A stretch of 64,000 nucleotides of DNA, taken from positions 1-64,000 of the IMG/VR virus record IMGVR_UViG_3300035698_022738; one strand, 5' to 3'. A program made the position numbers and the translations under genes. Within the stretch, counting starts at the first letter, position 1; the number at the start of each line of letters is the position of its first letter. Shown here in pieces: positions 1-17,233 of the stretch. The notes beneath the pieces were generated by a model, which worked only from the letters and a program-made list of their open reading frames with translations, was not told the origin of the DNA and ran no database searches. Source of the stretch: a virus.

Positions 1-3000
1 CCAGGCCAGCATGATCAGATTTCTCATGGGAATTGGGCGGATGGAAAAGGGGTTGTCAATTGGAGAGAACGAGTTGTACAGAACGACGGAAAAGCTGTTG
101 GACATCAAATCACGACCAAAGATGAGTTGGAGCAAGTTCTTAGAGGAACAAAAGGTCTTTGGGACCCAAACCCCAACAAGCTCCCTGTCTATATCAATCC
201 TCCAGGATCAATAGATGACTATCTTGAAAAGCTGACCGAGCAGCATAGCATAGAGGCTATAAACGAAAGGCGTTTATTTGTTTTTATGGTAGACAACAAG
301 ACTAGAGCTCTCGTCCTGCCAAGTGATATCACTTGGCAGGATTCCCACTGGGCACTTGCTGACTCTGTCTCAGGTCAGATACGGGGAGGACAGCCAGGGT
401 TCCTTTTAGGAGAGCGGGGAAATGTTTCAGATCAGGTGAATAACCTGTTGGATGGCTCAGTGCATGGGCGTGTTTATTTCAAAGAACCGTCTACGGAAGA
501 CTTTAATCTTAAGCTACAGATTGAAAGAATTGAGTTCAATATTGACTATGCTGGTGTTGTGAACACAAGAAACGAAAATTTTGCGTTCAATCTCGACTAT
601 GGGGATCCCTCTATCGGTGTTCAGTCGGGGGACGCTCGTGATAAGGCCTATGATAATATCTACGCTGCTATGGAGCAGCTCTCTAAGTTTGGGCTTGCCG
701 ATGATACTCAAGTTTTGATCCGTGATTGGTCGTTATCAGACGGTGTGCTCACAACTCTCAAACATCTTCCAGGTCAACACGATCAATTCTCTCATGAAAG
801 TTGGGCAAGGCAGGGAGTATTGTCAGGGTTTGAAGACTTTATTCAAGAGGATTACAGAGGACCCAGACCTGAGAGTTCGAGTAAATACGATGAGATGAGG
901 AATCATTATCTACTCCCTCCGGAGGCAGACAGTCCGATCATGGAAGTAAATGACCTGGCCGGAAGTGCCGCCGTTGAGGGGACAAAGAAATTTGTTCAAT
1001 ACCTATACGCTCCGGATGATCCAGATAAATGGGATGAGGACTACTGGTATGAACTCTCGTGGGATGCCGCACAAAAGATTGGAGAATCTTTTGATCCAGA
1101 GATTATAGAGGGTGAGTGGGGAGCTGACTTTTTCAGTGATGGGTACTTTACCGGAGACAAATTCAAAGACCGGGTGGATGATCTCATCAACGGCTGGAAT
1201 GAGCGCATGCCAACAAGTAATCTCACAGGTTTGTCTATGATGGAAGTAGCATCCGACCTTTTTGGTGTTGGTGAATCTGAATTCCAGAAAAATGAAAAGC
1301 CGATGTATGCCGGGGAAGAAGAGGGTAGTGAGAGGAGTGTCGCAGTTAGGGAGAGCCTGCCTCTGGGAGATGTGAGATATTCATTTCCGTTTGAAGAAGC
1401 TTGGAGAGATATGGAGATTCTGCCTCTCGGCTTTCCGACTGACTTCGAGTTTGCAGATGAGAGTAGAGCTGCAACCAGGTACATGCTTGGTAAGATGTAT
1501 GAGAATACTCAAACAGAGTTAGAGGCCGCAGGGGTAGAGAGTGTTATACTTTTCAGGGGGGTTCCGGCGCACAGGTTGGGAGATACTGAGACAGGGGCTG
1601 TCATTGAAATTGAGTCAAATACTCTGACAAGTTGGACAACTAACCCAGAGGTGGCTGCTCAGTTTGGAAGACGGATCGTAGCCGTAGTTCCAAGGGATCG
1701 TATTTTGTCTACCGCAAAAACAGGATTTGGAACATACCCACAGGCAGAGGTTGTGCTCATTGGCGGAATGGGGGGAGATCAAGCTCTTGTTTTGGATACA
1801 CCTGAAGCTGAGAGGATACAAGGTGGAATCTTTGGGGGTGCGTTCAAGCATCTCCCTGGTCAGCATGAACAGATTTCACATGGCAATTGGGCGGACGGCA
1901 GTTTAGAAGGCGATCCTATCCAGACCTCCGACATGTTTATTGTCGATGGCCGTGTGTGTGCATCTATCTTACGGGAGACTAGGGGCTACCATTCAGTTCA
2001 TCCCAATCAAATAGGAGTCTATATCAATCCAGAGAGCTCCCAGGATTATTTGGAAACTCTGAAAGCCCAGAATGGCGACTTGGAATACTACCCGAAGTTT
2101 GAAGTAAGAGTGCTCTATAACCCTAAGACAAGAGCTTTGATCTTGCCCTCCGATCCGATCTACCAAGACTCTCATCAAATGCTCGCTCAGGCCGTTGTGG
2201 GGCGTGATTTGGGGAGCATTGAATTTGATGAGTACGATTCGGGTGACTCCCTAGAAGCATCCTATGTGGGCAATGATTTACTGGACTCTTCGGTGCATTT
2301 GGTATTAGAGATTGACCCAGATGCGGGGTTTGTATTTACAGAGGTTGGAGCAAGTGTTCCCTTTGCCGGAGCAAGTGGAGAAAAGGCCTGGGATAACATC
2401 TATGATGCCTTTGATGCTCTGCACAAGTGGGGCCTGCCAGCGGAAACAAAGGTTGAAGTCTTTGGAGGGAGTTCCTTCAGAGATGTATTGAATACCACCC
2501 TCAAACATCTCCCAGGACAGCATGAACAGGAATCTCACGGAAACTGGGCGGATGGGCGGCCTTCCCTTCCGAGAGGTGCCATCACTGATATTGAGACAGT
2601 AGACAAAGTTTTGTCGAATGTGACAGGGCTCTGGAAGGCAAATGATGAGTCGGATGGGGTGTATATAAACACTCCCCTTGACCAGTATGTCGAAGTCCAG
2701 AAGGAGTTGAAATCATCTTTTGGGGAACCAATGGCATATTTGCCAGCTCTATTTGATCCAAAAACAAAGGCATTGATTTTTCCGAGAAGCCTCGTCTTTG
2801 ACACTCGACATGGAGGGATTGCAAAGAGTGTAACAGGCAATGATGGCGTCACAGAAAAGTACACGACAGATAACCCGCTATTCATTGATTTGATTGATAC
2901 TGAGCGGGAGCTTTTGGACAGGTGTGTACATTTGGAAGTTTTCCTTCGTCCTTCAGAGGATGGGAAAGTCTTGATTCCGGAGGTCACAGCTAATATAGAT

Positions 3001-4587
3001 TATGCCGGGTTCAAAAATGCCAGATACGACAACAAGAACAAAGCATACGACAATATCTACAAGGCTTTCGATAAGATGACCACTCTCGGGTTTCCTGAAG
3101 GCACGAAAGCCAGGATTACGGATAACTCGTTGACATACCCTGTCACGGAAGTTGACACGACCCTCAAACATCTACCAGGCCAGCATGAACAGGAATCTCA
3201 CGGCAATTGGGCTGATGGAATGGTGAAATACGAGAAGCGATTGGGATATGTTCAAGCTCCAAATCCAACCACAAACCCGTTAGATTATACAGACTCGGAG
3301 AAATATGCCCTCGATAAGTTGGGACGATCTTTGTCTACTCTGCACGACTTTTACGGAGAGTTTGATGATTTCCCCGAAGATATGAAAGAGGAATTATACT
3401 CCGTGATGCATGATGCTAGAGATGCTAAAAAGGAATGGCAAGTTGCCATCAAGAAGGAAATCAGCGTAGGAAACATTAAGCTCACAAAAGGGCAGTATAG
3501 TGGGAACTACGGAGATTTTACTGTCGAGGGCGGTCCTTGGAAAGAACCCGCTGACATATCAAGGAATGATCTTGACCTGAGAACTGGTCCAATTGTCCCT
3601 ATGTCAGAGTATCTGTGGCATGTGACAACAGCTGCCACCCAGCTAGAATCTGAGGGCTATATATTGAAGTCTCGGGATGATCTGGCTATGCAGCAAGGGA
3701 CAGGCCTTGGTGGGGGGGATGATACAACTATCAGTTTTTCCGATGACGAAGCGGTAGCAGAGGGTGTATACCGGGCCATGATTGAAGGCAGGGCTGTAGC
3801 CAGGGGTGACATCTCATTTCGTGATATGTTTGATGCCGCAGCTGAGGGTATCGAGGCAGATGAGCCGTGGGCTGGCAGATGGCTTGCATCAGTCACAGGC
3901 AGAACGAAATATGTAGATGAGACTCTTGCACCTGGGGATGCTATGCCACATGAGTTCGAGGCACTGGATGATGGGTATAACGCATTCGCTCTGGGGGTTA
4001 TGTCTCAGCCCATGACTGTTGAAGAAATCAACAGTTTTGACCCCCGTCTCGCAGATGATGGAACACGAGCAGAGGAGATCATACTAAGCCGCGCTGGGTT
4101 TGGTGGTATATTGGATGAGGTAGAACGAGCAAAAAGAAATTATGATGACTTCGAGTGGTCAGGGGTTGAACCTGACCTGTCATTTGAGCCAGTCGATTAT
4201 ACAGATGACGGAGAGCCTCGGTATAAGCACTTCTTGAGAAAAGTATCTCCAATGGAAAAACAAGATAAATACTTCAGTGCTTACACGACATGGCTGGGCC
4301 AGCGAGAAATTGCAAATGGTCCGATGAACCCTTTGTTCTGGAGCACTGATGTACAGTTTCTGGCAAACGCAGATAGGAGCGATATCCAGATACTCCACTA
4401 TCGGTCAAAGCCTGAATCTGTTGGACAGAGAATGGGGTCTCTCGCAGAATGGAGAACGTGGAACGGGGAGGCAGTTGTGTTTGACTCTCCGGCCAGGCAG
4501 TCAATGAATTATGTGGAAGATCAACTTGTCAAAACAAAGTTTGGTGAGAAGGTGATAGAGTCGCTCTACTTAGAGGTATACGACTGA
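1..4587 (+). CDS. Motif-delimited polyprotein 1 (5' truncated by the window edge): modules domain-X, ART (QxE), domain-X, domain-X, HVT-type ART-like
   Basis: Frame 1 is open from base 1 (PGQHDQISHGNWADGKGVVNW...) into the 127..4587 ORF. It has five KHLPGQHxQxSHGxWA-type motifs and an R..S-x-T..QxE ART signature at ~1495-1770. Confidence 0.8.
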   Translation, partial: PGQHDQISHGNWADGKGVVNWRERVVQNDGKAVGHQITTKDELEQVLRGTKGLWDPNPNKLPVYINPPGSIDDYLEKLTEQHSIEAINERRLFVFMVDNKTRALVLPSDITWQDSHWALADSVSGQIRGGQPGFLLGERGNVSDQVNNLLDGSVHGRVYFKEPSTEDFNLKLQIERIEFNIDYAGVVNTRNENFAFNLDYGDPSIGVQSGDARDKAYDNIYAAMEQLSKFGLADDTQVLIRDWSLSDGVLTTLKHLPGQHDQFSHESWARQGVLSGFEDFIQEDYRGPRPESSSKYDEMRNHYLLPPEADSPIMEVNDLAGSAAVEGTKKFVQYLYAPDDPDKWDEDYWYELSWDAAQKIGESFDPEIIEGEWGADFFSDGYFTGDKFKDRVDDLINGWNERMPTSNLTGLSMMEVASDLFGVGESEFQKNEKPMYAGEEEGSERSVAVRESLPLGDVRYSFPFEEAWRDMEILPLGFPTDFEFADESRAATRYMLGKMYENTQTELEAAGVESVILFRGVPAHRLGDTETGAVIEIESNTLTSWTTNPEVAAQFGRRIVAVVPRDRILSTAKTGFGTYPQAEVVLIGGMGGDQALVLDTPEAERIQGGIFGGAFKHLPGQHEQISHGNWADGSLEGDPIQTSDMFIVDGRVCASILRETRGYHSVHPNQIGVYINPESSQDYLETLKAQNGDLEYYPKFEVRVLYNPKTRALILPSDPIYQDSHQMLAQAVVGRDLGSIEFDEYDSGDSLEASYVGNDLLDSSVHLVLEIDPDAGFVFTEVGASVPFAGASGEKAWDNIYDAFDALHKWGLPAETKVEVFGGSSFRDVLNTTLKHLPGQHEQESHGNWADGRPSLPRGAITDIETVDKVLSNVTGLWKANDESDGVYINTPLDQYVEVQKELKSSFGEPMAYLPALFDPKTKALIFPRSLVFDTRHGGIAKSVTGNDGVTEKYTTDNPLFIDLIDTERELLDRCVHLEVFLRPSEDGKVLIPEVTANIDYAGFKNARYDNKNKAYDNIYKAFDKMTTLGFPEGTKARITDNSLTYPVTEVDTTLKHLPGQHEQESHGNWADGMVKYEKRLGYVQAPNPTTNPLDYTDSEKYALDKLGRSLSTLHDFYGEFDDFPEDMKEELYSVMHDARDAKKEWQVAIKKEISVGNIKLTKGQYSGNYGDFTVEGGPWKEPADISRNDLDLRTGPIVPMSEYLWHVTTAATQLESEGYILKSRDDLAMQQGTGLGGGDDTTISFSDDEAVAEGVYRAMIEGRAVARGDISFRDMFDAAAEGIEADEPWAGRWLASVTGRTKYVDETLAPGDAMPHEFEALDDGYNAFALGVMSQPMTVEEINSFDPRLADDGTRAEEIILSRAGFGGILDEVERAKRNYDDFEWSGVEPDLSFEPVDYTDDGEPRYKHFLRKVSPMEKQDKYFSAYTTWLGQREIANGPMNPLFWSTDVQFLANADRSDIQILHYRSKPESVGQRMGSLAEWRTWNGEAVVFDSPARQSMNYVEDQLVKTKFGEKVIESLYLEVYD

Positions 4588-6872
4588 TGAGATATAGAAC
4601 TGGAATTATGCGAAGAATGGTATCAGGTGGGGAGCCGTCGCCGGAAGATGATTTGAGAGATGTTGAGTTGGTTCCCGAGAGTTGGGAAGAGGAGACAGAA
4701 CTGAAACATCTCCCTGGTCAACATGACCAAATCTCTCATGGAAGTTGGGCTCAAGGTAGTGCAGAGGAGCCCGTGAGTCGAACACCTATCACAACAGTTG
4801 AACAAAGAAGGGAGCTCTTGGCTCAAAAGGATTTGTATGTCGAAGGCAATTTTCAGGATGGGCTGATGGGATATGCTCTGAATCCATCTAGTTTTGAGGA
4901 TGTCGTTCAATTTTGGAAAGGGGGCAATGTGGCCCCCAAAAGAGTTCCTGTCCTATATCATCCCAAAACCCACACACTTGTTTTTCCAGATGAGCCAACA
5001 GGACATCATAGAGAAGTCTACCTGGGTTTGTTCAATGTTCCCTTTGTTTATCCCAGTGTTCCATCAGAAGGAGTGCGTGAAGCTCAAACCTACGCAGAGG
5101 GGTTTTCTGATTCTTCAGTCCATCTCTACTTGAATCTTGACAAAGAATACAACATTGTACGGGTGGATGCTGATATAACATTTGCCGGAGAGGGATTTGG
5201 CGGATACGGTATGGGAGAGGACGAAAAAACAAAGGAGAGAGCCTACAAGAAAATTTACGAGTCTTTCGATAAACTGAAGGAAATAGGAATCTCTCCAGAG
5301 ACATCTGCAACTATCTCAGACTACACACTCTCCGGAAATGAACTCTCGACAACTCTCAAGCATCTCCCTGGTAGGCATGAGCAAGAATCTCATGGAAATT
5401 GGGCTAAAGGCAGTTCAACAAGTCTGCAAGAAAAATATACATCCAAAAGAATGTCGTTGATCGAAATTGTTGGAAAGTTGGAGCCCGAGGTTGTTGTCAG
5501 GGTAGCATCCAACCAGATTCCAGAGGGCTTTGGAACATACTATAATTATGAGGGAGAATCTGATTTTTGGTCCCCCCCAAAAGATATTTTGTTTGATGTT
5601 GTTGCCCAGTTCAAAAATCCAATCTTAACTGAGATGTCTGAAAATCTCATTGAACCTGAAAGTCTCGTCGAGGATGCCAGGGCGGCTATGCAAGAGTTGG
5701 GCGGCGGCGGAGAGGATGGATTGGATAACGCTCTTGCTCAGGGATTTCGAGTTGTAACTGTACGAAGGTCCACTAATATAGGTGGATGGACAAGGAGAGA
5801 TGACGAGCTATATATCGTCAAAACAGAACCGTCCAAGTGGTTGGAAGTGCGAGAGAGCCAGGGAACATCTCCAAAAATTGAATCTTCTCAAGGGCAAATT
5901 CCAGAAAACATTAAGTCCATGAGACTTCGAGACATTGATAGAGAAAATGGACAAATGAATCGGTACATATCGGGCGAGCAAGACATCGACGACCCCCTTG
6001 CGCTGAAAGTTGATTCTATCCTGGCTGGGGATAGCAAGGACAAGATAGCTACTAATCTATCAAAGGCAGCTCGTATTTCGTATGATGATGCAAACAGTCT
6101 CATTAAAGGATGGGCACAAACATCAAATGATGGTGATGGGCTGGCTTTGGGAGTCCAGCAAGCGGTGTCCGAAGAGTTTGGAATTCCCATGCAAGATTGG
6201 CAAAAGGAACATATGGCTCGTGTTCAGAGTAGTAGGGAAGAGCATTTTCCTGGGATGATCTATGAGACGGATGCCTATCCTTTTGAGCTAGGTTATCATA
6301 AGGTTCTGTCTGCCGAAACTCTTTTGGATAAGGAATGGAGTGAGTTCGGCAAAGAAAAAACAAAAACCATGCTGCGCGTCATGTATGATCAGACACAGAC
6401 AGAGTTGGAAGCAGCCGGGATTGAATATGTCACAGTGTTTAGGGGCGTTGGGTCCTCTATTCCGGAAACTTTCGAGGATTCTCCGTGGAAGAGTATGGAC
6501 AATCTGTCAATGAACCCGATTTCGAGTTGGTCAACATCTCCTTTAGTTGCCTCAGGATTTGGGAATACTGTGCTCGCGATGCGGGTTCCCAGAGAGCGTA
6601 TTTTATCGACTCCCCAGACGGGTTTTGGCTGTACAAATGAATTTGAGGTTGTCCTTCTCGGAGACCCCAAAGGTCAAGATACTGCTATAATTTTCCCAGA
6701 ATATTTAACTCAGTCATATCCACATGGATCACCCGTCAAAGTCTATGACCCAGATGACAATATCATCAAAGTGGTTGATGACGGAGAAGTGATCTATGTT
6801 GAAGATATGACGAATGAAGAAAAGATGGAATACGGGGTGTGGATAGAGGGAATGGGTTGGACAGTCACATAG
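4587..6872 (+). CDS. Motif-delimited polyprotein 2: 39-aa leader, domain-X module, module ending in an ADP-ribosyltransferase (ExE)
   Basis: Two motif copies. C-terminal VFRGV...ISSWSTS...NEFEVVL is an R-S-E ART signature, paralogous to the ART in gene 1. Confidence 0.8.
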   Translation: MRYRTGIMRRMVSGGEPSPEDDLRDVELVPESWEEETELKHLPGQHDQISHGSWAQGSAEEPVSRTPITTVEQRRELLAQKDLYVEGNFQDGLMGYALNPSSFEDVVQFWKGGNVAPKRVPVLYHPKTHTLVFPDEPTGHHREVYLGLFNVPFVYPSVPSEGVREAQTYAEGFSDSSVHLYLNLDKEYNIVRVDADITFAGEGFGGYGMGEDEKTKERAYKKIYESFDKLKEIGISPETSATISDYTLSGNELSTTLKHLPGRHEQESHGNWAKGSSTSLQEKYTSKRMSLIEIVGKLEPEVVVRVASNQIPEGFGTYYNYEGESDFWSPPKDILFDVVAQFKNPILTEMSENLIEPESLVEDARAAMQELGGGGEDGLDNALAQGFRVVTVRRSTNIGGWTRRDDELYIVKTEPSKWLEVRESQGTSPKIESSQGQIPENIKSMRLRDIDRENGQMNRYISGEQDIDDPLALKVDSILAGDSKDKIATNLSKAARISYDDANSLIKGWAQTSNDGDGLALGVQQAVSEEFGIPMQDWQKEHMARVQSSREEHFPGMIYETDAYPFELGYHKVLSAETLLDKEWSEFGKEKTKTMLRVMYDQTQTELEAAGIEYVTVFRGVGSSIPETFEDSPWKSMDNLSMNPISSWSTSPLVASGFGNTVLAMRVPRERILSTPQTGFGCTNEFEVVLLGDPKGQDTAIIFPEYLTQSYPHGSPVKVYDPDDNIIKVVDDGEVIYVEDMTNEEKMEYGVWIEGMGWTVT

Positions 6873-6878
6873 TTCTTA

Positions 6879-6918
6879 TTGCTCAAAAATGGGCCTTTGA
6901 ACGTTATTTGTAGTAGGA
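6879..6918 (+). promoter_or_regulatory. Putative phage-specific promoter (TTGCTCAAAAA...CGTT...TAGT) plus RBS
   Basis: Near-identical spaced motif at 58572; related copies at 38469, 42617, 44182 and 48038; all intergenic. Confidence 0.55.
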
Positions 6919-6925
6919 GAATTGT

Positions 6926-7198
6926 ATGAATGTTGATGATCTGCACTATTTGGTGCAAGGCTATCCTGGAAATAAGTGTTTGACTCATATCGTTACGAAA
7001 GATGGAAAGGCAATCTGTGGCCTTGGTGAGATTCCTGGGGTTGCTATGAAATTTTCGATTGATTGGGAGACTGCAATCTATACGAAGTTGTGTACAAAGT
7101 GCGCTGATCTGGTAGATATACATGAGTTGAACACTTCCCTCACATGTCGATATGAGTCATATCTGAAAGATTTTGGCATTGAACCCGCAGAGGGCTGA
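6926..7198 (+). CDS. Hypothetical protein, possible Zn-binding (H..C..CxxC)
   Basis: AGGAG RBS; motifs THIV..AICG and CTKC. Confidence 0.6.
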   Translation: MNVDDLHYLVQGYPGNKCLTHIVTKDGKAICGLGEIPGVAMKFSIDWETAIYTKLCTKCADLVDIHELNTSLTCRYESYLKDFGIEPAEG

Positions 7199-7299
7199 CA
7201 GAGCCGTTTTAAGACGGTTTTGGTATGGAGATACACAAATAGAGCATAAAACGCAACAGGGGCCGTTCTGGGGCCTTACAGAGGACGTGGGAGGAAACG

Positions 7300-7590
7300 A
7301 TGGCAGACAAAAAGAAGAAAACTGGTGGTGTGATCTTGGATCGCTCGTTGCATATCAATCCCTACACTGAAGAGGGGAAAAAGGCGCATGACCAGATCAT
7401 GCGTGAGACGCTTGAGGCCCTCGGGGCAGAAGTGCCAGAGGATTTGAAAAAGCGCACGGATGCGGCAGGGCATATCGATATTGATGCCATGATCGAAAAA
7501 GAGCGCAAGGAAAGAGAAGGGGAGTCAAAGGTAGATGTTGGTGATCTGGCAGAGGCTGTGAAAGAACTTGAAGAATCTTTGGAGGAATAA
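7300..7590 (+). CDS. Hypothetical acidic protein
   Basis: GGAGG RBS; TAATG coupling to the next gene. Confidence 0.7.
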   Translation: MADKKKKTGGVILDRSLHINPYTEEGKKAHDQIMRETLEALGAEVPEDLKKRTDAAGHIDIDAMIEKERKEREGESKVDVGDLAEAVKELEESLEE

Positions 7591-8453
7591 TGCGAGCCAG
7601 TAACTTGATTGCTGATCTACAAACTACCCTCAAGCATCTTCCAGGTCAGCATAACCAAGACGATCATGGAAGTTGGGCTCGTGGGCGTCAGTTGCCGTTA
7701 CCAGGGATGAACCCGCCTGGGTCTGAGTTCCCCAAAGTCTTCACAACTCACGGCAGTCAAACAGCAGATGCCGTGATGGTTAAGTGGGCAGAGGAAAAGG
7801 CTTTGCTTACTCATGAAGAGGGTCTGGCTATTGATGACTCCGGCAATGTGATATTTTCTGTTGTCGGAGAGAAGGATGTGATAAATCTCACAGATGACCA
7901 AGCATCTCAGATGCGTGATGCAATCTTCATTCATAACCATCCTGGAGCTGCCTTGACGTTTTCTGGGGAGGATTTGCTTACCTTTTCGCAACAAGAGGTA
8001 TTGGAGGGGCATGTGATTGGAGTAGATCACAATGGTCAATACAATCATTACAGTGTCAGTGCTCCGGAAGGAGACCCTGATAATTGGCCTGCTACTCCAT
8101 ACATTGCGGCTGCTTTGGATTCTGCTCACATCTCAGGGCTATACCTCTATGAGGTCATGACTGAGGACCTGGGCATTGATCAGTATGACGCCCAGGAACT
8201 TTGTGCGTCCTGGGAGAACGAGACGATTGGGAACTATTTTGACATGGACTACAAGGCTGAGGGAGTTAGGAGCAAAGAGAGCTTTGCCACAGAACATTGG
8301 GAGAGATTGAATGCCGCCTTCATTGAACGAGGCTATGGTCCTATTCCTCCGGCGGATGAATTTGCGATTCCCTTTGCATTTGACCCAGTTGACGCAGTTG
8401 ATCAGGCCAGGATGCAATCTATCTTATCTGGAGCATTCACACCATTCTTTTAA
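7590..8453 (+). CDS. Motif-bearing cargo protein with a JAB/MPN-like metalloenzyme domain
   Basis: 14-aa leader, then the motif; EEGL...IHNHPG..TFSGEDL matches the JAB pattern E..HxH-x7-S-x2-D. Confidence 0.7.
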   Translation: MRASNLIADLQTTLKHLPGQHNQDDHGSWARGRQLPLPGMNPPGSEFPKVFTTHGSQTADAVMVKWAEEKALLTHEEGLAIDDSGNVIFSVVGEKDVINLTDDQASQMRDAIFIHNHPGAALTFSGEDLLTFSQQEVLEGHVIGVDHNGQYNHYSVSAPEGDPDNWPATPYIAAALDSAHISGLYLYEVMTEDLGIDQYDAQELCASWENETIGNYFDMDYKAEGVRSKESFATEHWERLNAAFIERGYGPIPPADEFAIPFAFDPVDAVDQARMQSILSGAFTPFF

Positions 8454-8469
8454 TTAAACGGAGGTATAA

Positions 8470-9429
8470 ATGTCATCAATAACGATGATCCCAAGAAGGG
8501 AGAACTTCCCCCAGCAGGGAGGGGTTCGAGAGCATTTGATTCAGTTGACCAAGTGTATTGAGAGTTCAAACAAGTTCAACATTGTTCCATTTGGAGGGAG
8601 CCTCACTCATGTTGAGTCTTCATACAACTCTAAAGACAATATCAGACCGGACATCTATGTTTGTCACGGCGGATTTGAGCCGGAGCCCATTCAGGCTGTC
8701 TTGCGGAATCTAAGAGATGCCAAATTGATAGTGAGTGTTGCCAGGTGGATGGTTCCTGCTTACATGAGTGCAGTAACATACAAAACGGTAGTCATACCGA
8801 ATGGTATTGATCTCGATGATTTCAAGTCAGAGTATTTGCAGAGGGTCGAGACCAAGCCTGGGTATGTTTTGTATCCGAAGGCTGTCCCATATCATATGGA
8901 TGATGTATTTGATATCGCAGGGGCAATGCCAAAAACAAAGTTCCTGACAATCGCCAGGATCGAGAGGAACAAATATCCAAACAATATCCGGTGTATTGGT
9001 TTACAGAGTCATCGGTGGATGAAGAATTACATACGAGATGCTGCCTGCGTGCTACTGACCGGGCCTGAAGTCTGTCCAACGATTATGTTGGAGGCCTGGG
9101 CAGTTGGAACTCCGGTAGTGTTTCACAACTATGATCGAGGAGCCTGGGAGCTGACAACATGGGGACATAGCCATCCGATTTGTGTAGGAGCTATTCCCTA
9201 TAGGACCTTGCCAGAGGCAGTTCGTGCAGTTGAAGTTTGCAGGGACAACAAAGCCTATTATGGGGAAGCCGGTAAGCAAATGGTTGCCGATCATTTTCAG
9301 TGGAACAAACTTTTCAAACGATATGAAGGTGCATATGACGCACTCACGTATGGGGATATTGCCGTGCAAGATTTTATCAAAGCCGCGCAAAAGTGGTACA
9401 CCACGCGACCCTCGCCGTTGCCTGATTAA
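8470..9429 (+). CDS. Glycosyltransferase family 4 (GT-B)
   Basis: GGV N-terminal loop, VIPNGID, EVCPTIMLEAWAVGTPVV (E-x7-E), C-terminal F.W. Confidence 0.85.
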   Translation: MSSITMIPRRENFPQQGGVREHLIQLTKCIESSNKFNIVPFGGSLTHVESSYNSKDNIRPDIYVCHGGFEPEPIQAVLRNLRDAKLIVSVARWMVPAYMSAVTYKTVVIPNGIDLDDFKSEYLQRVETKPGYVLYPKAVPYHMDDVFDIAGAMPKTKFLTIARIERNKYPNNIRCIGLQSHRWMKNYIRDAACVLLTGPEVCPTIMLEAWAVGTPVVFHNYDRGAWELTTWGHSHPICVGAIPYRTLPEAVRAVEVCRDNKAYYGEAGKQMVADHFQWNKLFKRYEGAYDALTYGDIAVQDFIKAAQKWYTTRPSPLPD

Positions 9430-9730
9430 GAAAAAGGGGTATGGGCCAGACTGGATCAGACAGCGCAAGCTGGCTATGGAGCGTGATAATTACACCTGTC
9501 AGAAGTGTGGATACGTTGGAAAGAGGCGGAAGAGTAAGCCACGTAGATGGAGTGTGTCTGTGCATCATATCACAAAGATCAAAAACTTTGCCAACACCAA
9601 GACTGGAGAGGTTGACTACAAGACAGCCAACGACCTCTCCAATCTTGTTACTCTTTGTGATCGATGCCACAAAGCAGCTGACGGTCATACACCACTCAAG
9701 GGATTTTCTGGATTTCGAGGGAAGATATGA
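9350..9730 (+). CDS. HNH endonuclease (start uncertain; the ORF is open from 9224)
   Basis: RDNYTCQKC...VHHI...NLVTLCDRCH. Confidence 0.85.
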   Translation: MGILPCKILSKPRKSGTPRDPRRCLIKKKGYGPDWIRQRKLAMERDNYTCQKCGYVGKRRKSKPRRWSVSVHHITKIKNFANTKTGEVDYKTANDLSNLVTLCDRCHKAADGHTPLKGFSGFRGKI

Positions 9731-11397
9731 GCATTTTATCGGATGTTAAAGAAGCCTTGACTTTTGTTGAGTTGGATACAAGACTCAAACATCTTCCAGG
9801 ACAACATGACCAAGCAAGCCATGGGAGCTGGGCAAGCGGAACTTTTCGGAATGTCACTCAGTATATTGATCCGGACGAAGCTCGCAGGGCCAGGGCCTAC
9901 AATCCATCGGGACAGTCACTCACCGATATGTTTGCTTCCCAAGAGGATGAGGATGATTGGGTATGGTCAGAGGATGAGGGTGATTGGGTGTGGACAGGGG
10001 AGGATGAGACTCCGACTCTGGATAAGCCTTCCGACTGGAACAAGGCTGCTATCGAGGAGTTTGGGCTCACATATGATCTGGCAGAGGCCGGATATGTTCT
10101 CACCAATGGAGACATGCTAGATTTCAGTGGAAAACGTGAGGGAGGTTCTCCAGGTGTGCGCTCATATGACCATAGACAAATAGGTGTGGCATTTGAGGAT
10201 TACGACATAGAGACACTGGGTGGAACTGACGGCATGATGTACTTCATGCAGGAATCCGGTGCTATCAGAATTAGTTACTATGGGGATGATGTAACAATAG
10301 ACATTGCTGCATATCCAACCACAAAGCAATTTGATTGGTTGAAAGAGATAGATGAGCAATATCCCATAATTTGGGATGTGACCGATCCGGCTACCGGGTA
10401 CAGACTGGATTCCGGAGAAGGGTTTAGGGATTTGAGGAGTGCGATTAGTGATGCCTACAATGACCCAAAAACGGGGTTTAAGCATCTCCCTGGTCAGCAT
10501 GAACAGATTTCACATGGCAATTGGGCAGACAGGTTGTCCTATTATAGAGACCAAAGACAAGAAATGTCGGATCAAGAATGGTCTGAGTTCAAACGCATTG
10601 AACGAGAGTGGATGCGCGGTCAATCCTCTATGTTCACTAAAGAGGAATGGGAGGCATTGAACGAGGCCTCCGATGATAAGCCTCTGCCAAGAGTAGGTGA
10701 ATCAACCAGTCCCCGGGTTGAATTTGATGTTGAAGATACATGCAGTCTGAGAATAGCACTCGATGAGCATAATATAAATCTGGATGATATCCAGGCAGTC
10801 GTTGATCTCAATATTGATGGTCTTGTGAGTCAGACAGAGGTCAGTGCTGACAACTCATATGATGATGACATTCGAGTGAAAAGTGAGATTGTAGATTCCG
10901 GCGGGAACTCCGTAGGGAATATTGAATTCAACATTACTTCATACTCTATTCGATTTGGTTACTTTAAGCTCGATAATCAGTATGGTCGCTCGGGGAACGC
11001 CGTAGAAATCATCAATGATATGGTGAGCCTAGGCCAGAGGGCTGGTATTGACAGAATTTCTCTTGAGGCTGACATTTCAATCGGAAAATACGCATGGGCA
11101 AAGCTTGGTTTTGATTACGACGGTTCCGATTATTCTCCGGAACAGGCGTCAGAAGTTTTTCAAAATTGGTTTAGTGATATGAGCTATCTCCATGGGTTAG
11201 ATGAGCCTCCGGATGGATGGCCCGAGTTTGAGTCAGCTATGCATGTAGCTGAATACGATCCTGGAATCTATGTCAAAGGGTCGAATATATCGAACAGAGA
11301 TGTACCAAAGGATATGACTTTACCACTCGGAAAGGCTTTCATGTTGGATGATAGAGGTCATGGAAAGTGGCACGGAGAGCTCTACGTCTGGAACTAA
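9727..11397 (+). CDS. Motif-delimited polyprotein 4: 20-aa leader, unknown module, GNAT-like acetyltransferase module
   Basis: Two motif copies; second module has YFKLDNQYGRSGNA...ISLEA..IGKYAWAKLGF (GNAT motif A/B-like). Confidence 0.72.
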   Translation: MSILSDVKEALTFVELDTRLKHLPGQHDQASHGSWASGTFRNVTQYIDPDEARRARAYNPSGQSLTDMFASQEDEDDWVWSEDEGDWVWTGEDETPTLDKPSDWNKAAIEEFGLTYDLAEAGYVLTNGDMLDFSGKREGGSPGVRSYDHRQIGVAFEDYDIETLGGTDGMMYFMQESGAIRISYYGDDVTIDIAAYPTTKQFDWLKEIDEQYPIIWDVTDPATGYRLDSGEGFRDLRSAISDAYNDPKTGFKHLPGQHEQISHGNWADRLSYYRDQRQEMSDQEWSEFKRIEREWMRGQSSMFTKEEWEALNEASDDKPLPRVGESTSPRVEFDVEDTCSLRIALDEHNINLDDIQAVVDLNIDGLVSQTEVSADNSYDDDIRVKSEIVDSGGNSVGNIEFNITSYSIRFGYFKLDNQYGRSGNAVEIINDMVSLGQRAGIDRISLEADISIGKYAWAKLGFDYDGSDYSPEQASEVFQNWFSDMSYLHGLDEPPDGWPEFESAMHVAEYDPGIYVKGSNISNRDVPKDMTLPLGKAFMLDDRGHGKWHGELYVWN

Positions 11398-11958: not shown

Positions 11959-13983
11959 TTGAATAGACCAAAAGTGTCGATTGTAATCCCTTGTTACCAG
12001 CATCAAACAATAGTGAAGAGAGCTGTAGCAAGTGCATTAGCACAAAAAAATGCGCCCAAATATGAGGTCATTGTTGTAGATGACGGCTCTGATCCGCCAG
12101 TTGCGGCGATGAGGGGAGTTCGTCTCATACGGCACGAAGAGAATAAGGGGTTGGCGGCTGCTTTGAACACGGGTGTACGTGCATCCAAAGCTAGCCGTTT
12201 TGTGATTCTGGCCTCTGATGACGAGCTCGATCCACTCTACATGAACGAGATGACTAAGCATAAGTCCGATATTGTCAGCTGTGACATGATGATATCTGAT
12301 GAGCATATCCTGATGAGATCTGGAAATTTATACAGGCTCAAGAAGGGGAACTGTCACTCATATGCAGCCCTGGTAACTAGAGATATGTTCAACAGAGTGG
12401 GTGGGTTCAAGAACATGAATCCATCCTGGGAGGATTATGAGTTTTGGTTGAATTGTGCAAAGCATGCAGCAAAGTGGAAGCATGTAAAGAAGCCTTTGCA
12501 CATCTACTATCACACAAAGGATGGGCGTAACGAGCAAGCTCAGGGAAAGGATCGCCTGCTAAACGGCCTGCTGCACGGCTACCACGAGGACCTGTATGGT
12601 CTGGGTATGGGGCTCGTTGGAGTGGTGATCCCCTGCTATAAGCATGAGGAGTTTGTTCTCGAGGCCGTGGAATCCTGTCTACATCAAAGCTACCCTCATG
12701 TTCAGGTTGTTGTGGTTGATGACGGGTCCCCTGGTGATGTTAAAGGAGCTTTGAAGGGAGTGAGTGACCCTGAACGGCTTTCAATCTTGAGGCAAGATAA
12801 CAGGGGCCTATCAGGGGCCAGGAATTCAGGCATACGCTATTTGATATCAAAATTCTATCCAGAATACACAATGATGCTTGACGCAGATGATATGATAGAC
12901 GAGAAATTCATCGAAACCACAATGACTGTGATGCAGGATAATGAGTTTGTGTACACGGATGTCCAGTTCTTTGGGGATGCTTGGCACATCTATGAGCTAC
13001 CGGAATGGGATAGGAATTTAATTCTCCGTAAGCATTTGCATCCGTGTACATTTCTTGCACCGTCTAAAATGTTCGATAACGTGATTGAAAGTCGTGGTTA
13101 TTGCTATGATGAGGATATGAAGGACGGCTATGAAGACTGGGAGTTCAGCATTGCATGTGCGATGTGTGACTGGAATGGAAAACGTGTGCCACAGCCTCTT
13201 TTTCAGTATAGGCAGTTTCAAAATGGATCAATGAGAACTGAGGCAAACAAAAAGAACAAAGACCTTGCCAAGTATATTCGAGAGAAGCACAGTTGGATTT
13301 CGACTGGAGGTTGGAGACAAATGGCTGGATGTACATCTTGCGGAGGTAACAGAATGGCAAAGACAGGTCCAGGAGCTCTCAAGGTTATCGTTCCAGGAAT
13401 AGGTGAGGTAATCTGGGACACCCCGTTAAGTGTGGAGTACACTGGGATCACAACCAGCACCGTTACCAAGATTGGTCATGGAGGCCAAATCTATAAGTTT
13501 AGCGGTGATCTCGAAAAGCAGGCAAGGGGGTATGGACCCCGATTTATTGCGAAGGCTGTAGACGCCCATCTCTTCTCAGGCCCATTTGAGCTGAATCCAA
13601 TCAGTAGTGAACCCGAAGTACAAAGAGATGAAGAGGCGGAAACACTTCAGATCGAGAGGGCTCCGGTTGTTCAAGACCCCAAGGGAACGAGGCTGGTTGA
13701 TCTGCGAAGGCCTTTGACGGAAGAAGAGACTGAAAAGAAAAAGGAACAAGAGTTCGAGGAAATTCAGGAGCGGGCGGCTGCGGTTGTGATTGCCTCTGAT
13801 GACCTAACACAAATCAAAGGTGTTGGGCCAGCTTATGAGGAAAAGCTAAAAGCTGCTGGGTATACTTTCCTTGTCGATCTTGCTGGGGCACACTCCGATG
13901 AGTTGAGTCTGCTGCTGGGGATCAAATCTGAAAAGGCTGAATCGTTGATTGCAGCCGCTCTGGCAGTGATGAATGAATCTTAG
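11959..13983 (+). CDS. Tandem GT2 glycosyltransferase fused to a CxxC domain and a C-terminal helix-hairpin-helix
   Basis: Two IVIPCY...VVDDGS...GL..A.N.G...EDY/WEF units; DDLTQIKGVGP HhH motif. Confidence 0.88.
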   Translation: MNRPKVSIVIPCYQHQTIVKRAVASALAQKNAPKYEVIVVDDGSDPPVAAMRGVRLIRHEENKGLAAALNTGVRASKASRFVILASDDELDPLYMNEMTKHKSDIVSCDMMISDEHILMRSGNLYRLKKGNCHSYAALVTRDMFNRVGGFKNMNPSWEDYEFWLNCAKHAAKWKHVKKPLHIYYHTKDGRNEQAQGKDRLLNGLLHGYHEDLYGLGMGLVGVVIPCYKHEEFVLEAVESCLHQSYPHVQVVVVDDGSPGDVKGALKGVSDPERLSILRQDNRGLSGARNSGIRYLISKFYPEYTMMLDADDMIDEKFIETTMTVMQDNEFVYTDVQFFGDAWHIYELPEWDRNLILRKHLHPCTFLAPSKMFDNVIESRGYCYDEDMKDGYEDWEFSIACAMCDWNGKRVPQPLFQYRQFQNGSMRTEANKKNKDLAKYIREKHSWISTGGWRQMAGCTSCGGNRMAKTGPGALKVIVPGIGEVIWDTPLSVEYTGITTSTVTKIGHGGQIYKFSGDLEKQARGYGPRFIAKAVDAHLFSGPFELNPISSEPEVQRDEEAETLQIERAPVVQDPKGTRLVDLRRPLTEEETEKKKEQEFEEIQERAAAVVIASDDLTQIKGVGPAYEEKLKAAGYTFLVDLAGAHSDELSLLLGIKSEKAESLIAAALAVMNES

Positions 13984-14338
13984 CTGGTTGCCGTCCTGGT
14001 TAAGGGTTGTTATATACGCTCTGGCTGTATTCAGGCTGACTCATTTGGTTTTGAGGGAGGCGGGACCCTTCGACATCTTTGTGAGATTGAGAGCCTTGCT
14101 CGGAGCTTACGAAAGACTGGAAGTGTCAAAGAATGGTGAGGTCATAGCCATACAGACCTCGAAGGGCTTTTGGACTGATTTGTTTTCCTGTCCTTACTGT
14201 CTGTCTGGCTGGTTTGCCATCATTGCAGCTGTCGGGCTCGCCTCAGATTTCTTGTGGCTCGATCTGATCGCCCTCTGGCTTTGTGTGTGGGCAATTGTAT
14301 TCTTTGTCTTTAGGGCATTAGAGAGGGGTGAGGGATGA
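13973..14338 (+). CDS. Membrane protein, DUF1360-like
   Basis: LAVFRLTHL..E.GPF...LFSCPYCLSGW plus hydrophobic helices. Confidence 0.65.
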   Translation: MNLSWLPSWLRVVIYALAVFRLTHLVLREAGPFDIFVRLRALLGAYERLEVSKNGEVIAIQTSKGFWTDLFSCPYCLSGWFAIIAAVGLASDFLWLDLIALWLCVWAIVFFVFRALERGEG

Positions 14339-15213
14339 GAATCCTGATAACAGGAGGCCTGGGGTATATCGGGGGCTATCTGGCAAAAGAGCTAAAGAGA
14401 GATGGACACGATGTTATCCTTCTTGATACTCTGTTCAATGCGGCATGGAATGCCAATGAGTTCAACGAGTTTGGAATTATGAGGGACAGCGTTACAAACA
14501 TTGATGTCGTTTCAAGGGCGTTGAAGGGTGTCGATGTTGTCTATCATCTGGCGGCCAGGATGGATTGGTCACAAGCCTTTAGGCACCCGATCAAGCTGTA
14601 CAGGACAAATGTACTGGGGACAGCCAACGTTTTGACAGCTGCCAGGGATGCCGGGGTTGACCAAGTTGTTGTGGCCTCATCAGCTGCGGTCTATGGAAAC
14701 GTGGATTATGCAGATGAGGACTGCCTGCCGATGCCCATCAATTCCTATGGCTGTACCAAGTTAGCCATGGAGGCTGTCTGTCGTGATTTTGGTATCATGG
14801 GGCTGAATGTTGTTGTTCTCAGGTTCTTCAACGTTTGGGGTGGCATGGTATCCCGATCTGTTGTCAATAAATTTGTAGATGGGCACTCGTCAATCTATGG
14901 AGACGGGGGACAAACACGAGACTTTGTTTACATTGGTGATGTCATTTCTGCTCTCATGCAAGCCCGTCTCTGGGACCCCCTAATCTACAACATTGGGACT
15001 GGGGTATCTATCTCAGTTCAGGATTTGTGGAGCATGATAAGAACTGATAAACCGGAGCTTGAAGGGTTAAGGTCTGGACAGCCTGAAATCTATATGTCAG
15101 GAGCTGACATGGATTCTACCTACCGTCGTGTACCTTGGAGACCAAAAGTAATGATCTCTGAGTTGAAAAAGACAGACATCATTAGACTGTCTTTGTCTGA
15201 ATCGCTTGATTAG
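14335..15213 (+). CDS. NAD-dependent nucleotide-sugar epimerase/dehydratase (extended SDR)
   Basis: GGLGYIG, HLAA, SSAAVYG, YGCTK (YxxxK), RFFNVWG, RDFVY. Confidence 0.92.
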   Translation: MRILITGGLGYIGGYLAKELKRDGHDVILLDTLFNAAWNANEFNEFGIMRDSVTNIDVVSRALKGVDVVYHLAARMDWSQAFRHPIKLYRTNVLGTANVLTAARDAGVDQVVVASSAAVYGNVDYADEDCLPMPINSYGCTKLAMEAVCRDFGIMGLNVVVLRFFNVWGGMVSRSVVNKFVDGHSSIYGDGGQTRDFVYIGDVISALMQARLWDPLIYNIGTGVSISVQDLWSMIRTDKPELEGLRSGQPEIYMSGADMDSTYRRVPWRPKVMISELKKTDIIRLSLSESLD

Positions 15214-15236
15214 AGTCCGGCTGGGAGGCCTATATA

Positions 15237-16085
15237 ATGCGAGTAGCTGTGTTTGGAGCGGGTTACTGGGGTATCAACTATATCAGGGAGTTGGGGAAGT
15301 ACGTTGAATTTGTAATAGAACCAAATGCTGAGAGAGCTGAGGTTGTGCGGAAAAAGTATGGAGTTGCAGTCTATCCTGACCTGCCAGAGGTGTATTTTGA
15401 TGCAGCCGTTGTAACAACACCTCCCGAGCATCATGTCAGGATTGCAAAACCAATCCTGGCCTCCGGCAGGAAAGTATTGATCGAAAAGCCGTTGGCTATG
15501 TCAGTCAATGAGGCCAAAGAGCTTCAGCCCTACGCAGAAAATTGCATGGCCGCTCTGGTCTACCTCTTTCACCCAACTGTCGAAACTCTCAGGAAAGAAG
15601 CTAGCGCGAGGATAGAATTCAAGCAGCTGTCTCATATATGTAGTCGTAGGACAAATGCAGGTCCTGTCAGACCATGGCAGACTGCAATGCACGACCTGGC
15701 TCCTCATGATATTTCCATTTTCAATTATGTACTGGAAAGCTCTCCGAAGTGGGTAAGAGCGGCAGGAAACAACGACTGGACATTTTTGAACCTTGGCTAT
15801 GAACTCACCTCGGGGGAAACATACGATGCCATTTGCTATGTATCATGGCATGGAGGGGAAAAAATCAGAAGAATTGAACTTGTGTACACTCCAGAGCACT
15901 CGGAACGGTTTGTATTTGACGATGTATCCATTGTTCTGTCAATAACCCCCTTGAGACGTATGCTTGACTCATTCATGAACGGGCAATGGGAAAAGAGCAC
16001 TTTTGACGATGGAATGGCTGTTATGCAGGTCTTGCAATCGGCGGAGAAAAGTCTCGCTATGGGTGGGCGGGAGGTAAAATTGTGA
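15237..16085 (+). CDS. Gfo/Idh/MocA oxidoreductase (WbpB/WlbA-like sugar 3-dehydrogenase)
   Basis: GAGYWG, EKP, DLAPHD motifs; adjacent to a DegT aminotransferase. Confidence 0.85.
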   Translation: MRVAVFGAGYWGINYIRELGKYVEFVIEPNAERAEVVRKKYGVAVYPDLPEVYFDAAVVTTPPEHHVRIAKPILASGRKVLIEKPLAMSVNEAKELQPYAENCMAALVYLFHPTVETLRKEASARIEFKQLSHICSRRTNAGPVRPWQTAMHDLAPHDISIFNYVLESSPKWVRAAGNNDWTFLNLGYELTSGETYDAICYVSWHGGEKIRRIELVYTPEHSERFVFDDVSIVLSITPLRRMLDSFMNGQWEKSTFDDGMAVMQVLQSAEKSLAMGGREVKL

Positions 16086-17233
16086 GTACCTTACTAGGTC
16101 CTGATCTTCGTATTCTTGACCCAAAAATTCTCGAAAGAGTTGAAAGCGTACTCATGTCAGGACAGTTTATAAACGGTCCGGGGGTTGGGTTCTTTGAGAA
16201 GAGCTGGGCGGAAGTGACTGGCAGTGAGTATTGTGTTGGGGTTGCTTCTGGGTCGGCTGCACTCAAGTCAATACTCACCTATATCCGACGCAAATCTCCT
16301 GACAAGCAGAATGTTATCTTACCCAGGATATCCTTCTATGCGACGGCGGAAGCTGTTGTATCCGCTGGGTTTACACCCTATTATGTTGATGTCGGGCCAG
16401 ATGGGGGAATACTTGTTGGGGACGTTAAGAAAATCTTGGAAGGGGGAGGTACGATAAGCCCCCAGAGTATTGCAGCTGTCGTAGTTGTCCATCTGTATGG
16501 AAAAGCCCTTCAAATGAACACTCATATTCAAAAGCTTGCTCGGGAACTTGGAATTCCTTTTGTAGAGGACGCATGCCAAGCTCATGGTGTATTCAACAAG
16601 GATTTCCCGCATTACGGGATTGCAGCAGCCTATTCATTTTATCCGGCCAAGAATTTAGGGGCAGCTGGGGACGCAGGGGCCGTTGTAACAAACGATATGG
16701 AGTTGGCTGACTTTGTACGGGCATACATCAACTATGGTGATCCAAAGGGCCAGAAGTTCAATCATTCCCTGCTGGGTACAAATGAGAGAATGGACACAAT
16801 ACAGGCAGCTGTGTTGAATGGGAAACTAGAGAGTCTGAAATCTTGGAATAATCATAGGAGCCAGGTTGCTGGATATTATGCAGCCAGTGGACTGAAGTCA
16901 ATTGCTTCCCGGTCTGGTCTGGAAGTTGTCTCAAACTGGCACCTCTATCCAATATTAGTCAAAGAGCGGGATATTGTGATGGAACAAATGAGAACGGTCA
17001 GAAGGGTGTCTACGGGCAACCATTATCCATACACCTTGGATAGTTTGTTCCCTGGCGAGAGGGCTTTTGAATCACTCTGCTTCGGAGATTCCTACTCAAA
17101 AGTTCTTTCCGAGCATACAATGACTCTTCCCATAGGAACTCATGTTACAATGGAGATGGCTGCACAAGTAGTCAACGCCTTCCAATCAATTTGCAAAAGA
17201 GACAAGACATATACATGGAGGTTAAAAGAATGA
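16082..17233 (+). CDS. DegT/DnrJ/EryC1/StrS PLP sugar aminotransferase (WbpE/WlbC-like)
   Basis: [28 protein letters not shown] with the catalytic Lys. Confidence 0.92.

Follow-up and report, generated by a model that had tools for sequence, protein, structure and literature searches.

A histidine-rich peptide heads the modules of polyproteins encoded beside the head genes of an uncultured tailed phage

What purpose is served by a short histidine-rich peptide that opens module after module in the proteins of a phage? The question is raised by the first 11,397 nt of the stretch of DNA analysed here (the window, positions 1–64,000 of the single 96,851-bp virus contig IMGVR_UViG_3300035698_022738), in which four genes, PP1 to PP4, encode polyproteins with modules headed by the peptide K-H-L-P-G-[QR]-H-[DEN]-Q-x-x-H-[GE]-[NS]-W-A, referred to below as the tag. 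In our judgement the chances are about even that the tag combines a processing site, placed just before its first histidine (His1), with a universal His-triad peptide that is kept on each cargo module loaded into the head. The contig carries genes for a tape-measure protein, helicases, a primase, a DNA polymerase and a large terminase; the tape-measure, replication and large terminase genes identify it as a tailed phage. All large open reading frames (ORFs) in the ORF list of the window lie on the + strand.

A six-frame pattern search of positions 1–11397 found nine complete copies of the tag and one cut copy. His1 falls at nt 763, 1849, 2506 and 3169 in PP1 (ORF 1..4587), at 4707 and 5361 in PP2 (ORF 4587..6872), at 7635 in PP3 (ORF 7590..8453) and at 9790 and 10483 in PP4 (ORF 9727..11397), and the motif starts (760, 1846 and so on) are the codons of the Lys that precedes His1. 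The copies are as follows (ART, ADP-ribosyltransferase; family A, a recurrent group of modules described with the cargo genes).

1..39, + strand: tag copy truncated at its 5' end by the start of the window, PGQHDQISHGNWA
760..807, + strand: tag copy KHLPGQHDQFSHESWA, heading the ART module PP1_m4
1846..1893, + strand: tag copy heading a family-A module of PP1
2503..2550, + strand: tag copy heading a second family-A module in PP1
3166..3213, + strand: tag copy heading the 472-aa terminal module of PP1
4704..4751, + strand: tag copy after the PP2 leader
5358..5405, + strand: tag copy heading the PP2 ART module, the sole copy with Arg in place of Gln
7632..7679, + strand: tag copy after the PP3 leader
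9787..9834, + strand: tag copy after the PP4 leader
10480..10527, + strand: tag copy heading the second PP4 module

The degenerate DNA pattern of the tag gave eight matches against 0.00 expected (100 shuffles), and the sole other H.PG.H match in the window, at 26619, lies in a frame full of stops. Three more copies stand beyond the window on the same contig (genome nt 81006, 95407 and 96052), which brings the total to 13. The tag codons vary at most synonymous positions between these 13 copies, so that the peptide is what selection acts on and the tag is not a DNA repeat. The conserved region spans approximately -8 to +16 around the K|H bond; the residues before His1 in this phage are TTLK (five times), TELK, TRLK, GAFK and TGFK. 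Everywhere on the contig the tag heads a module of 160–500 aa. A reading made earlier from the letters of this DNA alone (the sequence-only reading) had described ten motif copies at these positions, a [TG]-x-[LF] context upstream of them, short leaders before the first motif and modules of about 220–500 aa. All four descriptions hold: the scan recovered nine full copies and one truncated by the start, the upstream context is as described, the leaders measure 40, 15 and 21 aa including the Lys, and the modules of the window measure 218–503 aa.

The tag is not confined to this phage. Back-translated patterns confirmed 110 sites in IMG/VR, from which 74 viral loci were retained for counts of gene anatomy (287 genes, 511 tag copies). 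A profile search of a word-indexed protein collection yielded at least 899 tagged proteins, and 822 proteins at E<=1e-3, with up to 19 tag copies in a single protein, came from scanning all of 1.84 billion cluster representatives with HMMER; altogether 1,184 distinct tag copies were gathered. The commoner form in the loci is shorter, K-H-x-x-H-D-Q-x-x-H-G-x-W-A. The tag was seen solely in viral or metagenomic sequence. As the full 15-residue pattern had no match in 185,579 representative prokaryote genomes, tagged phages seem to be absent from sequenced genomes as prophages; an 8-residue pattern gave 167 unconfirmed stretches in the prokaryote genomes, against roughly estimated 40 expected. 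Searches of cultured phages with the tag (tblastn) gave no match, and PP2 and a zeta-toxin protein match cultured phages through their ART and zeta domains only, never through the tag. The motif strings do not occur in the searchable literature. Domains found in tagged proteins include ADPrib_exo_Tox, ART-PolyVal, GNAT, SprT-like, ATLF, zeta toxin and MuF (Pfam families PF18760, PF03496, PF10263, PF07737, PF00583, PF06414 and PF04233 in tagged relatives; in the window, PF07357-like ARTs only). The richest source of tags is a group of roughly 60-kb phages in IMG/VR samples 3300023174, 3300023179 and 3300023184.

Within the 74 loci the position of the tag is strikingly regular. The first tag lies no more than 80 aa from the start in 77% of the 287 genes, no tag comes closer than 10 aa to the N-terminus or 49 aa to the C-terminus, and successive tags are 116–661 aa apart (median 213). 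These placement statistics show that the tag is a header of domain-sized modules, as it had been read in the four genes of the window, and not a trailer; the placement in this phage agrees. A leader of at least 9 aa precedes the first tag in all 280 genes with a complete 5' end (13–40 aa in this phage). In the AlphaFold2 (AF2) model of a tagged 179-aa protein of this phage, built with 28 homologues, pLDDT is below 50 for residues 1–40, which comprise leader and tag, and about 90 over the domain; the tag is thus predicted to act as a disordered linear motif. Close relatives among the 60-kb phages carry the same module (69–95% identity) either as a separate gene with its own leader or as an internal module, and the homology break points of such split and fused modules lie within about three residues of the tag.

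The 60-kb phages also contain small tagged modules (L027:14035-14583, L009:9937-10215 and similar) with about 70 very acidic residues and a repeated DDSEGE, standing between protease and scaffold, so that the tag marks non-enzymatic head-internal peptides too. In locus L078, two genes after the capsid gene (L078:12799-13242 and L078:13725-14180) have the common leader MNTQE.LAKLD.IQESLKHLP; one of them runs into the full His peptide and the other diverges right after KHLP.

The strongest, still indirect, argument that polypeptides are cut at the tag comes from the residue just before His1 (position -1). This residue is K in 779 of 846 copies (92%). Where it is not, it tends to be uniform or nearly uniform within a polyprotein: F in 8/8, 9/10, 6/7, 4/4 and 3/3 copies, L in 6/6 and 5/7, A in 6/6, E in 4/4 and 3/3, Y in 4/4 and R in 2/2. 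Ten proteins with three or more copies were homogeneous for a residue other than K, against at most one in each of 2,000 shuffles. The peptide that follows is unchanged across all -1 classes, and each class has its own upstream pattern, position -3 being V, I or L in the K and E classes. The cleavage consensus of the T4 prohead protease gp21 is [LI]-x-E, and the E class, with its hydrophobic -3 and E at -1, reproduces it. Because a universal peptide is preceded here by a lineage-specific, internally uniform residue, the bond before His1 appears to behave like the P1 position of co-evolving proteases. Cleavage at this bond, proposed from the sequence of the window, gains support to the extent that the bond has the features of a specificity position. 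The non-K proteins P0149 and P0243 had no match in IMG/VR, the E-class DNA pattern gave no match, and the E-class proteins P0243 and P0198, compared with PDB sequences in search of an embedded protease, gave none either.

A cleavage site calls for an enzyme, and the candidate lies just upstream of the capsid gene, in residues ~1030–1270 of a 1,446-aa ORF (genome 89068-93405). This region has no Pfam match and its family has no match in IMG/VR. Its ESM Atlas neighbours belong to Peptidase_S78 (score 0.95), the top three Foldseek hits of its AF2 model (pLDDT 67) are all T4 gp21, and VIA-align places T4 gp21 first (Z 9.9, root mean square deviation 2.9 A over 125 residues), with herpesvirus proteases next. 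Structural modelling thus indicates that the phage encodes a very divergent prohead protease of the assemblin fold, and the presence of such an enzyme, which the sequence-only reading presupposed, is borne out by these three comparisons. A complex prediction for the protease domain (A4) with the tag (A2) scored 0.02, which is evidence neither way.

Other motifs of the same gene deserve a comment. An invariant, presumably catalytic His stands in L-R-Y-[KR]-H-[IV]-P-G-L-D-G (genome ~92230-92260, aa ~1055–1065 of the 1,446-aa ORF), which shares K-H-[IL]-P-G with the tag; a rough post hoc chance of such sharing is ~0.02 per proteome. All 13 occurrences of the 9-mer TGAAGCTGA (genome 89337-92076 plus window 1803) are on the + strand, the - strand having none. 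Eleven of the 13 copies lie inside the protease-scaffold gene and, with one more site, encode x-E-A-[DE] twelve times. This motif was considered as a protease site and rejected, as orthologues lack it and all copies have identical codons. Because orthologues are devoid of x-E-A-[DE], a role of the 9-mer at the DNA or RNA level, or its recent expansion, is likelier than a conserved cleavage site.

The tagged genes stand in the block of genes for head assembly. In this phage the terminase gene is followed by those for the portal, an HD-domain protein, the tagged 179-aa protein and a MuF-like protein and, after further genes, by those for the 1,446-aa protein, the putative capsid protein and PP1–PP4. 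In the 60-kb phages portal and MuF (PF04233) come first, then several tagged genes, the gene for an XkdF-type protease (PF14550, E 9e-11), that for a small tagged acidic protein, scaffold and major head protein; in loci L005 and L027 the tagged array comes after MuF and ahead of the genes for protease, scaffold and capsid. Some phages have their protease or MuF as one domain within a tagged polyprotein. The head association supposed for the multi-effector genes of the window is therefore found again in the 60-kb phages, where tagged genes lie between portal/MuF and protease/scaffold/capsid.

Two metagenomic relatives, L078 and L079, share the capsid (66–70% identity) and the protease with this phage. 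L078 has a single tagged 152-aa gene after the capsid gene; in L079 (capsid 66% identical) the 7 kb that follow the capsid gene contain no tagged gene. In L079 a JAB-like domain homologous to PP3 is fused directly to a MuF-like protein instead of carrying a tag, which is the best argument that the cargo is loaded into the head. Judged by these gene arrangements, the tag in this phage appears to take the place of a physical fusion to a known head protein. The fusion in L079 (L079:4661-6061) is made through a His/Gly-rich linker, GSGHHGHAGRPGQVGGS, which may represent another recurrent linker type of phage head proteins.

The tagged 179-aa protein itself (genome 80952-81488) lies between the portal and the MuF-like gene. 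Its non-tag part, the H-domain, comprises about 130 aa with a confident alpha/beta AF2 model, and is the sole module common to other tagged phages (57 of the 74 loci, tagged every time). No PDB match to its fold was obtained by Foldseek, the best Z in the VIA wide search was 4.3, and its profile found nothing among PDB sequences. The H-domain is possibly central to the system, perhaps as an adaptor. Two NPGH stretches occur in the HD-domain protein encoded downstream of the portal gene (genome 78907-80733), and its homologue in L024 bears full KHLPGQHDQ tags; the NPGH stretches could be decayed or variant tags.

The explanation that we favour brings these observations together as follows. Each module stored in the head would be preceded by a bipartite header: a lineage-specific stretch ending in a fixed residue (here T-x-[LIF]-K), and then the His-triad peptide common to all lineages, H-x(2,4)-H-D-Q-x-x-H-G-x-W-A. 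The cut between the fixed residue and His1 would be made by a protease of the phage, in the simplest case its assemblin-fold prohead protease, and would remove the leaders of 13–40 aa and separate the modules from one another. Mature modules would then start with the His peptide, which could serve a common step: bringing the modules into the prohead or keeping them there, or else a function that depends on metal and is exerted at ejection or inside the host. Finally, the modules (ADP-ribosyltransferases, JAB-like and uncharacterised domains) would enter the cell along with the DNA, in the manner of T4 Alt, to act as effectors of host takeover or against host defences. A narrower version, to which we give tentative credence only, is a two-part code used by phages alone, in which the site for the phage's own protease is joined to a metal clamp, formed with the freed N-terminal His, that holds or threads the cargo. 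If this version were true, any protein provided with the header would be encapsidated and injected, which would make the header a portable loading handle.

Several points weigh against processing at His1 followed by retention of the peptide. All phages that bear the tag are uncultured. T-x-[LIF]-K is absent from the portal, capsid and protease-scaffold proteins, where [TG]x[LF]K-type sites had been anticipated; about 0.8 occurrences would be expected by chance, hence this point is weak. The link between -1 class and protease type was examined in a single F-class genome (G001), where the candidate enzyme seems to be of a different kind: its protease-like gene matches phrog_18402, belongs to no Pfam family and has no similarity to the XkdF protease by phmmer. 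The expected tie of the tag to one capsid or protease family did not materialise, with XkdF-type enzymes (PF14550) in the ~60-kb phages and a divergent assemblin-fold protease here. Moreover, the His peptide is nearly identical in phages without detectably related capsid, portal or protease, which leaves little probability for a co-evolving capsid pocket and favours a universal ligand, such as a metal or DNA, or else an intrinsic role. The tag is also accessory to the capsid type of this phage, given that in L078 and L079, with capsid and protease of the same family, at most one tagged gene follows the capsid gene in the sequence available 3' of it. A conserved P' side of 16 residues is, to our knowledge, far longer than that of any known prohead-protease site, and a cut at K|H would leave the peptide on the product, whereas T4 proteins lose their targeting sequence. 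The combined loading and cleavage tag put forward in the sequence-only reading therefore has partial support: module headers, head context, a P1-like bond and the fission and fusion of modules speak for it, and the matching sites expected in head proteins and the tie to one capsid or protease family did not appear.

Could the polyproteins remain intact, with the repeated His peptide as an uncleaved connector, a multivalent docking element whose epitope includes the -1 residue? We regard this as rather doubtful, though it accounts for much. Its receptor inside the head could be DNA, a metal ion, the portal or MuF complex, or the H-domain protein, whose wide occurrence, always with a tag, would suit a hub. 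An anchor of this kind is consistent with a tag that is universal while structural proteins differ and with the lack of T-x-[LIF]-K sites in other head proteins. It also has parallels in the N4 virion RNA polymerase and some plasmid polyvalent proteins, which are transferred uncut according to the sections of PMC5512222 used here. Nevertheless, single-module genes retain a leader of at least nine residues, for which a pure binding tag has no need, and fused and split forms alternate freely among close relatives. The -1 residue, in addition, switches between K, F, L, A, E and Y by lineage with the peptide constant, which is the behaviour of a P1 position rather than of an epitope. The conservation of the His peptide over unrelated capsids would equally suit a signal that acts after injection, with no role in head assembly, as a site for a host protease, an address for a host factor or metal, or an activation switch. 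Enzymatic cargo (ARTs, zeta toxin, GNAT, zincins) fits with such a role, and processing after injection is proposed for some polyvalent proteins by Iyer et al. in the part of their text that bears on it (PMC5512222). We consider this unlikely, since the small acidic non-enzymatic proteins encoded between protease and scaffold are tagged as well, the protease and MuF are embedded in tagged polyproteins of some phages, and a phage-specific -1 class would demand host proteases of many specificities.

Two further explanations dispense with the phage protease. The tag might be only a junction for recombination, similar to the pre-toxin motifs of polymorphic toxins, with no biochemical role. The break points of module shuffling do coincide with it and related phages differ widely in module content, but the difference of most synonymous sites among the 13 copies leaves little DNA identity for such a junction, the peptide is conserved between phages otherwise without detectable similarity, and the invariant His, Asp, Gln and Trp, with the uniform -1 residue in each protein, indicate selection on the peptide; this makes the explanation quite improbable. 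We give the least credit of all to self-processing assisted by a metal, in which the three His and the Asp would bind Zn, Ni or Cu and cut the upstream bond without any protease. The spacing H-x(2,4)-H-D-Q-x-x-H does resemble metal sites, and the tag, predicted to be disordered and accessible, is present alongside very different proteases. Lineage-specific residues at -1 and -3 nevertheless suggest an external enzyme, and we know of no precedent for self-cutting by a tag-like sequence.

Among described systems, the internal proteins of T4 are the most instructive for the processing step. The T4 proteins IPI–III and Alt possess a capsid targeting sequence that is removed by the prohead protease gp21. 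The likeness extends to a short leader, an injected ART, an assemblin-fold protease and a hydrophobic -3 with a fixed -1 residue. A short N-terminal leader and an assemblin-fold protease are thus found here, and the same consensus in head substrates is not. The T4 tag is moreover a discarded leader, whereas here the conserved peptide follows the presumed cut, recurs in polyproteins and in unrelated capsid lineages and has no sequence similarity to that of T4. The cargo-loading peptides of encapsulins are usually C-terminal, rich in Gly, Ser and Leu, and co-evolve with the shell. Like the tag, they are short conserved terminal peptides that address diverse enzymes to the lumen of an HK97-fold shell; the present tag differs in being N-terminal, His-rich and common to unrelated shells.

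With respect to gene organisation, the tagged genes are polyvalent proteins, a kind already known (Iyer, Burroughs, Anand, de Souza and Aravind 2017, PMC5512222), which the sections of that paper used here predict to be packaged and injected and, as proposed there, processed by peptidases. As in the published cases, unrelated effector domains (at least two per polypeptide) are strung together in one chain and encoded beside portal, MuF or capsid genes, with signature domains in tagged relatives: ART, GNAT, zincin or SprT, zeta toxin, ParB-like and MuF in the relatives, ART and JAB-like in this phage. The difference lies in the tag, which is carried here by each module, whether in a polyprotein, in a gene with a single module or in a small acidic head protein; the portions of PMC5512222 that were drawn upon contain no recurring delimiter or header peptide. 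The supposition that the locus is not a described system is thus right for the tag, which is new and apparently undescribed, and wrong for the proteins. In the MuF polymorphic toxins (Jamet et al. 2017, PMC5576092) a head protein is the vehicle for an attached variable effector, which resembles the fusion of a JAB-like domain to the MuF-like protein of L079. In the present phage the effectors are unfused and have a tag instead: PP1–PP4 contain no MuF domain, the MuF-like gene (genome 81860-82801) has no fused effector, and no immunity gene was recognised. In phiKZ and SPN3US the prohead protease processes ejection and inner-body proteins at [SAG]-x-E, as the relevant passages of PMC10052503 and PMC7411985 describe. 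According to these passages they are likewise many head-internal proteins served by one protease with a short consensus, losing propeptides before the cargo is ejected, but the three-residue sites come without a conserved P' peptide and the proteins are encoded by separate genes, not by polyproteins punctuated with a tag.

Packaged and injected proteins are the first weapons of a phage against host defences, and the way in which they are selected for loading is known for T4, phiKZ-like phages, P1 and N4. One short peptide borne by about 1,200 modules across hundreds of uncultured phages would make it possible to list candidate injected effectors from sequence, many of them with no recognised fold, and would render the processing of phage polyproteins accessible to experiment. 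If the tag were sufficient for loading, it would provide a tool for placing chosen proteins into phage heads in phage-host systems of the laboratory. The lineage switches of the -1 residue offer a route to reading protease specificity from genomes.

The cargo genes of the window and the domains recognised in them are listed below.

1..4587, + strand: PP1, 3' part with five of seven modules, continuing from genome nt 95353 if the contig is circular
4587..6872, + strand: PP2, with a 40-aa leader, a family-A module and a 503-aa ART module (ORF list, BLASTP)
7590..8453, + strand: PP3, with a 15-aa leader, a tag and a JAB/JAMM-like module
9727..11397, + strand: PP4, with a 21-aa leader and two tagged modules without profile match
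1495..1719, + strand: DRAT-like ADP-ribosyltransferase core of PP1_m4 (Pfam PF07357, E 3.6e-4, below the cut-off; paralogue of the PP2 ART)
6363..6617, + strand: DRAT-like ADP-ribosyltransferase core of PP2 (Pfam PF07357, E 2e-6 to 7e-7, above the cut-off)
7932..7973, + strand: JAMM-type HxHx7Sx2D signature HNHPGAALTFSGED, read from the sequence, without Pfam match

The ends of the contig (window 1–14, genome 96838-96851) overlap by 14 nt, in frame and inside a tag. This reflects either a circular or circularly permuted genome or an assembly break at the recurring tag. With a circular contig, PP1 would be a 2,018-aa protein with seven tagged modules that starts right after the putative capsid gene, its content being four family-A modules, a JAB-like module, a DRAT-like ART and the 472-aa terminal module, of which only the ARTs are confirmed by a profile.

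Comparison of the modules with one another by BLASTP defined three families: family A, a JAB-like pair and an ART pair. Family A has five copies of about 220 aa, four in PP1 and one in PP2; one of them lies beyond the contig end, so that the four copies of an uncharacterised domain counted in the window are confirmed and increased by one. The two ART modules named in the sequence-only reading were both found by the Pfam DRAT profile, one below the cut-off (E 3.6e-4) and one above (7e-7), and the PP2 ART has a tblastn match to Bacillus phage SP-15. The JAB-like pair consists of PP1_m2 and PP3, the latter homologous to the C-terminal domain of the MuF-like protein in L079. The JAB assignment is suggested only by the E..HxHx7Sx2D signature common to these two paralogous modules and finds no Pfam match. 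Searches of Pfam, PHROGs and PDB sequences gave no support to the GNAT and 'HVT ART-like' domains suggested in the sequence-only reading, and searches of Pfam (E<=1), PHROGs, PDB sequences and the ESM Atlas found nothing for family A, the PP1 terminal module, PP3 or PP4.

The cargo genes are interleaved with genes for a glycosyltransferase, an epimerase and an aminotransferase (window 8470-9429 and 11959-17233). L078 and L079 have such genes immediately 3' of the capsid gene, which suggests that the cargo array was inserted, or expanded, within a conserved capsid-glycosylation block. A 168-aa ORF (window 9224-9730) with an HNH-type Cys/His pattern, located between the genes for the glycosyltransferase and PP4, is conserved in L078 and L079.

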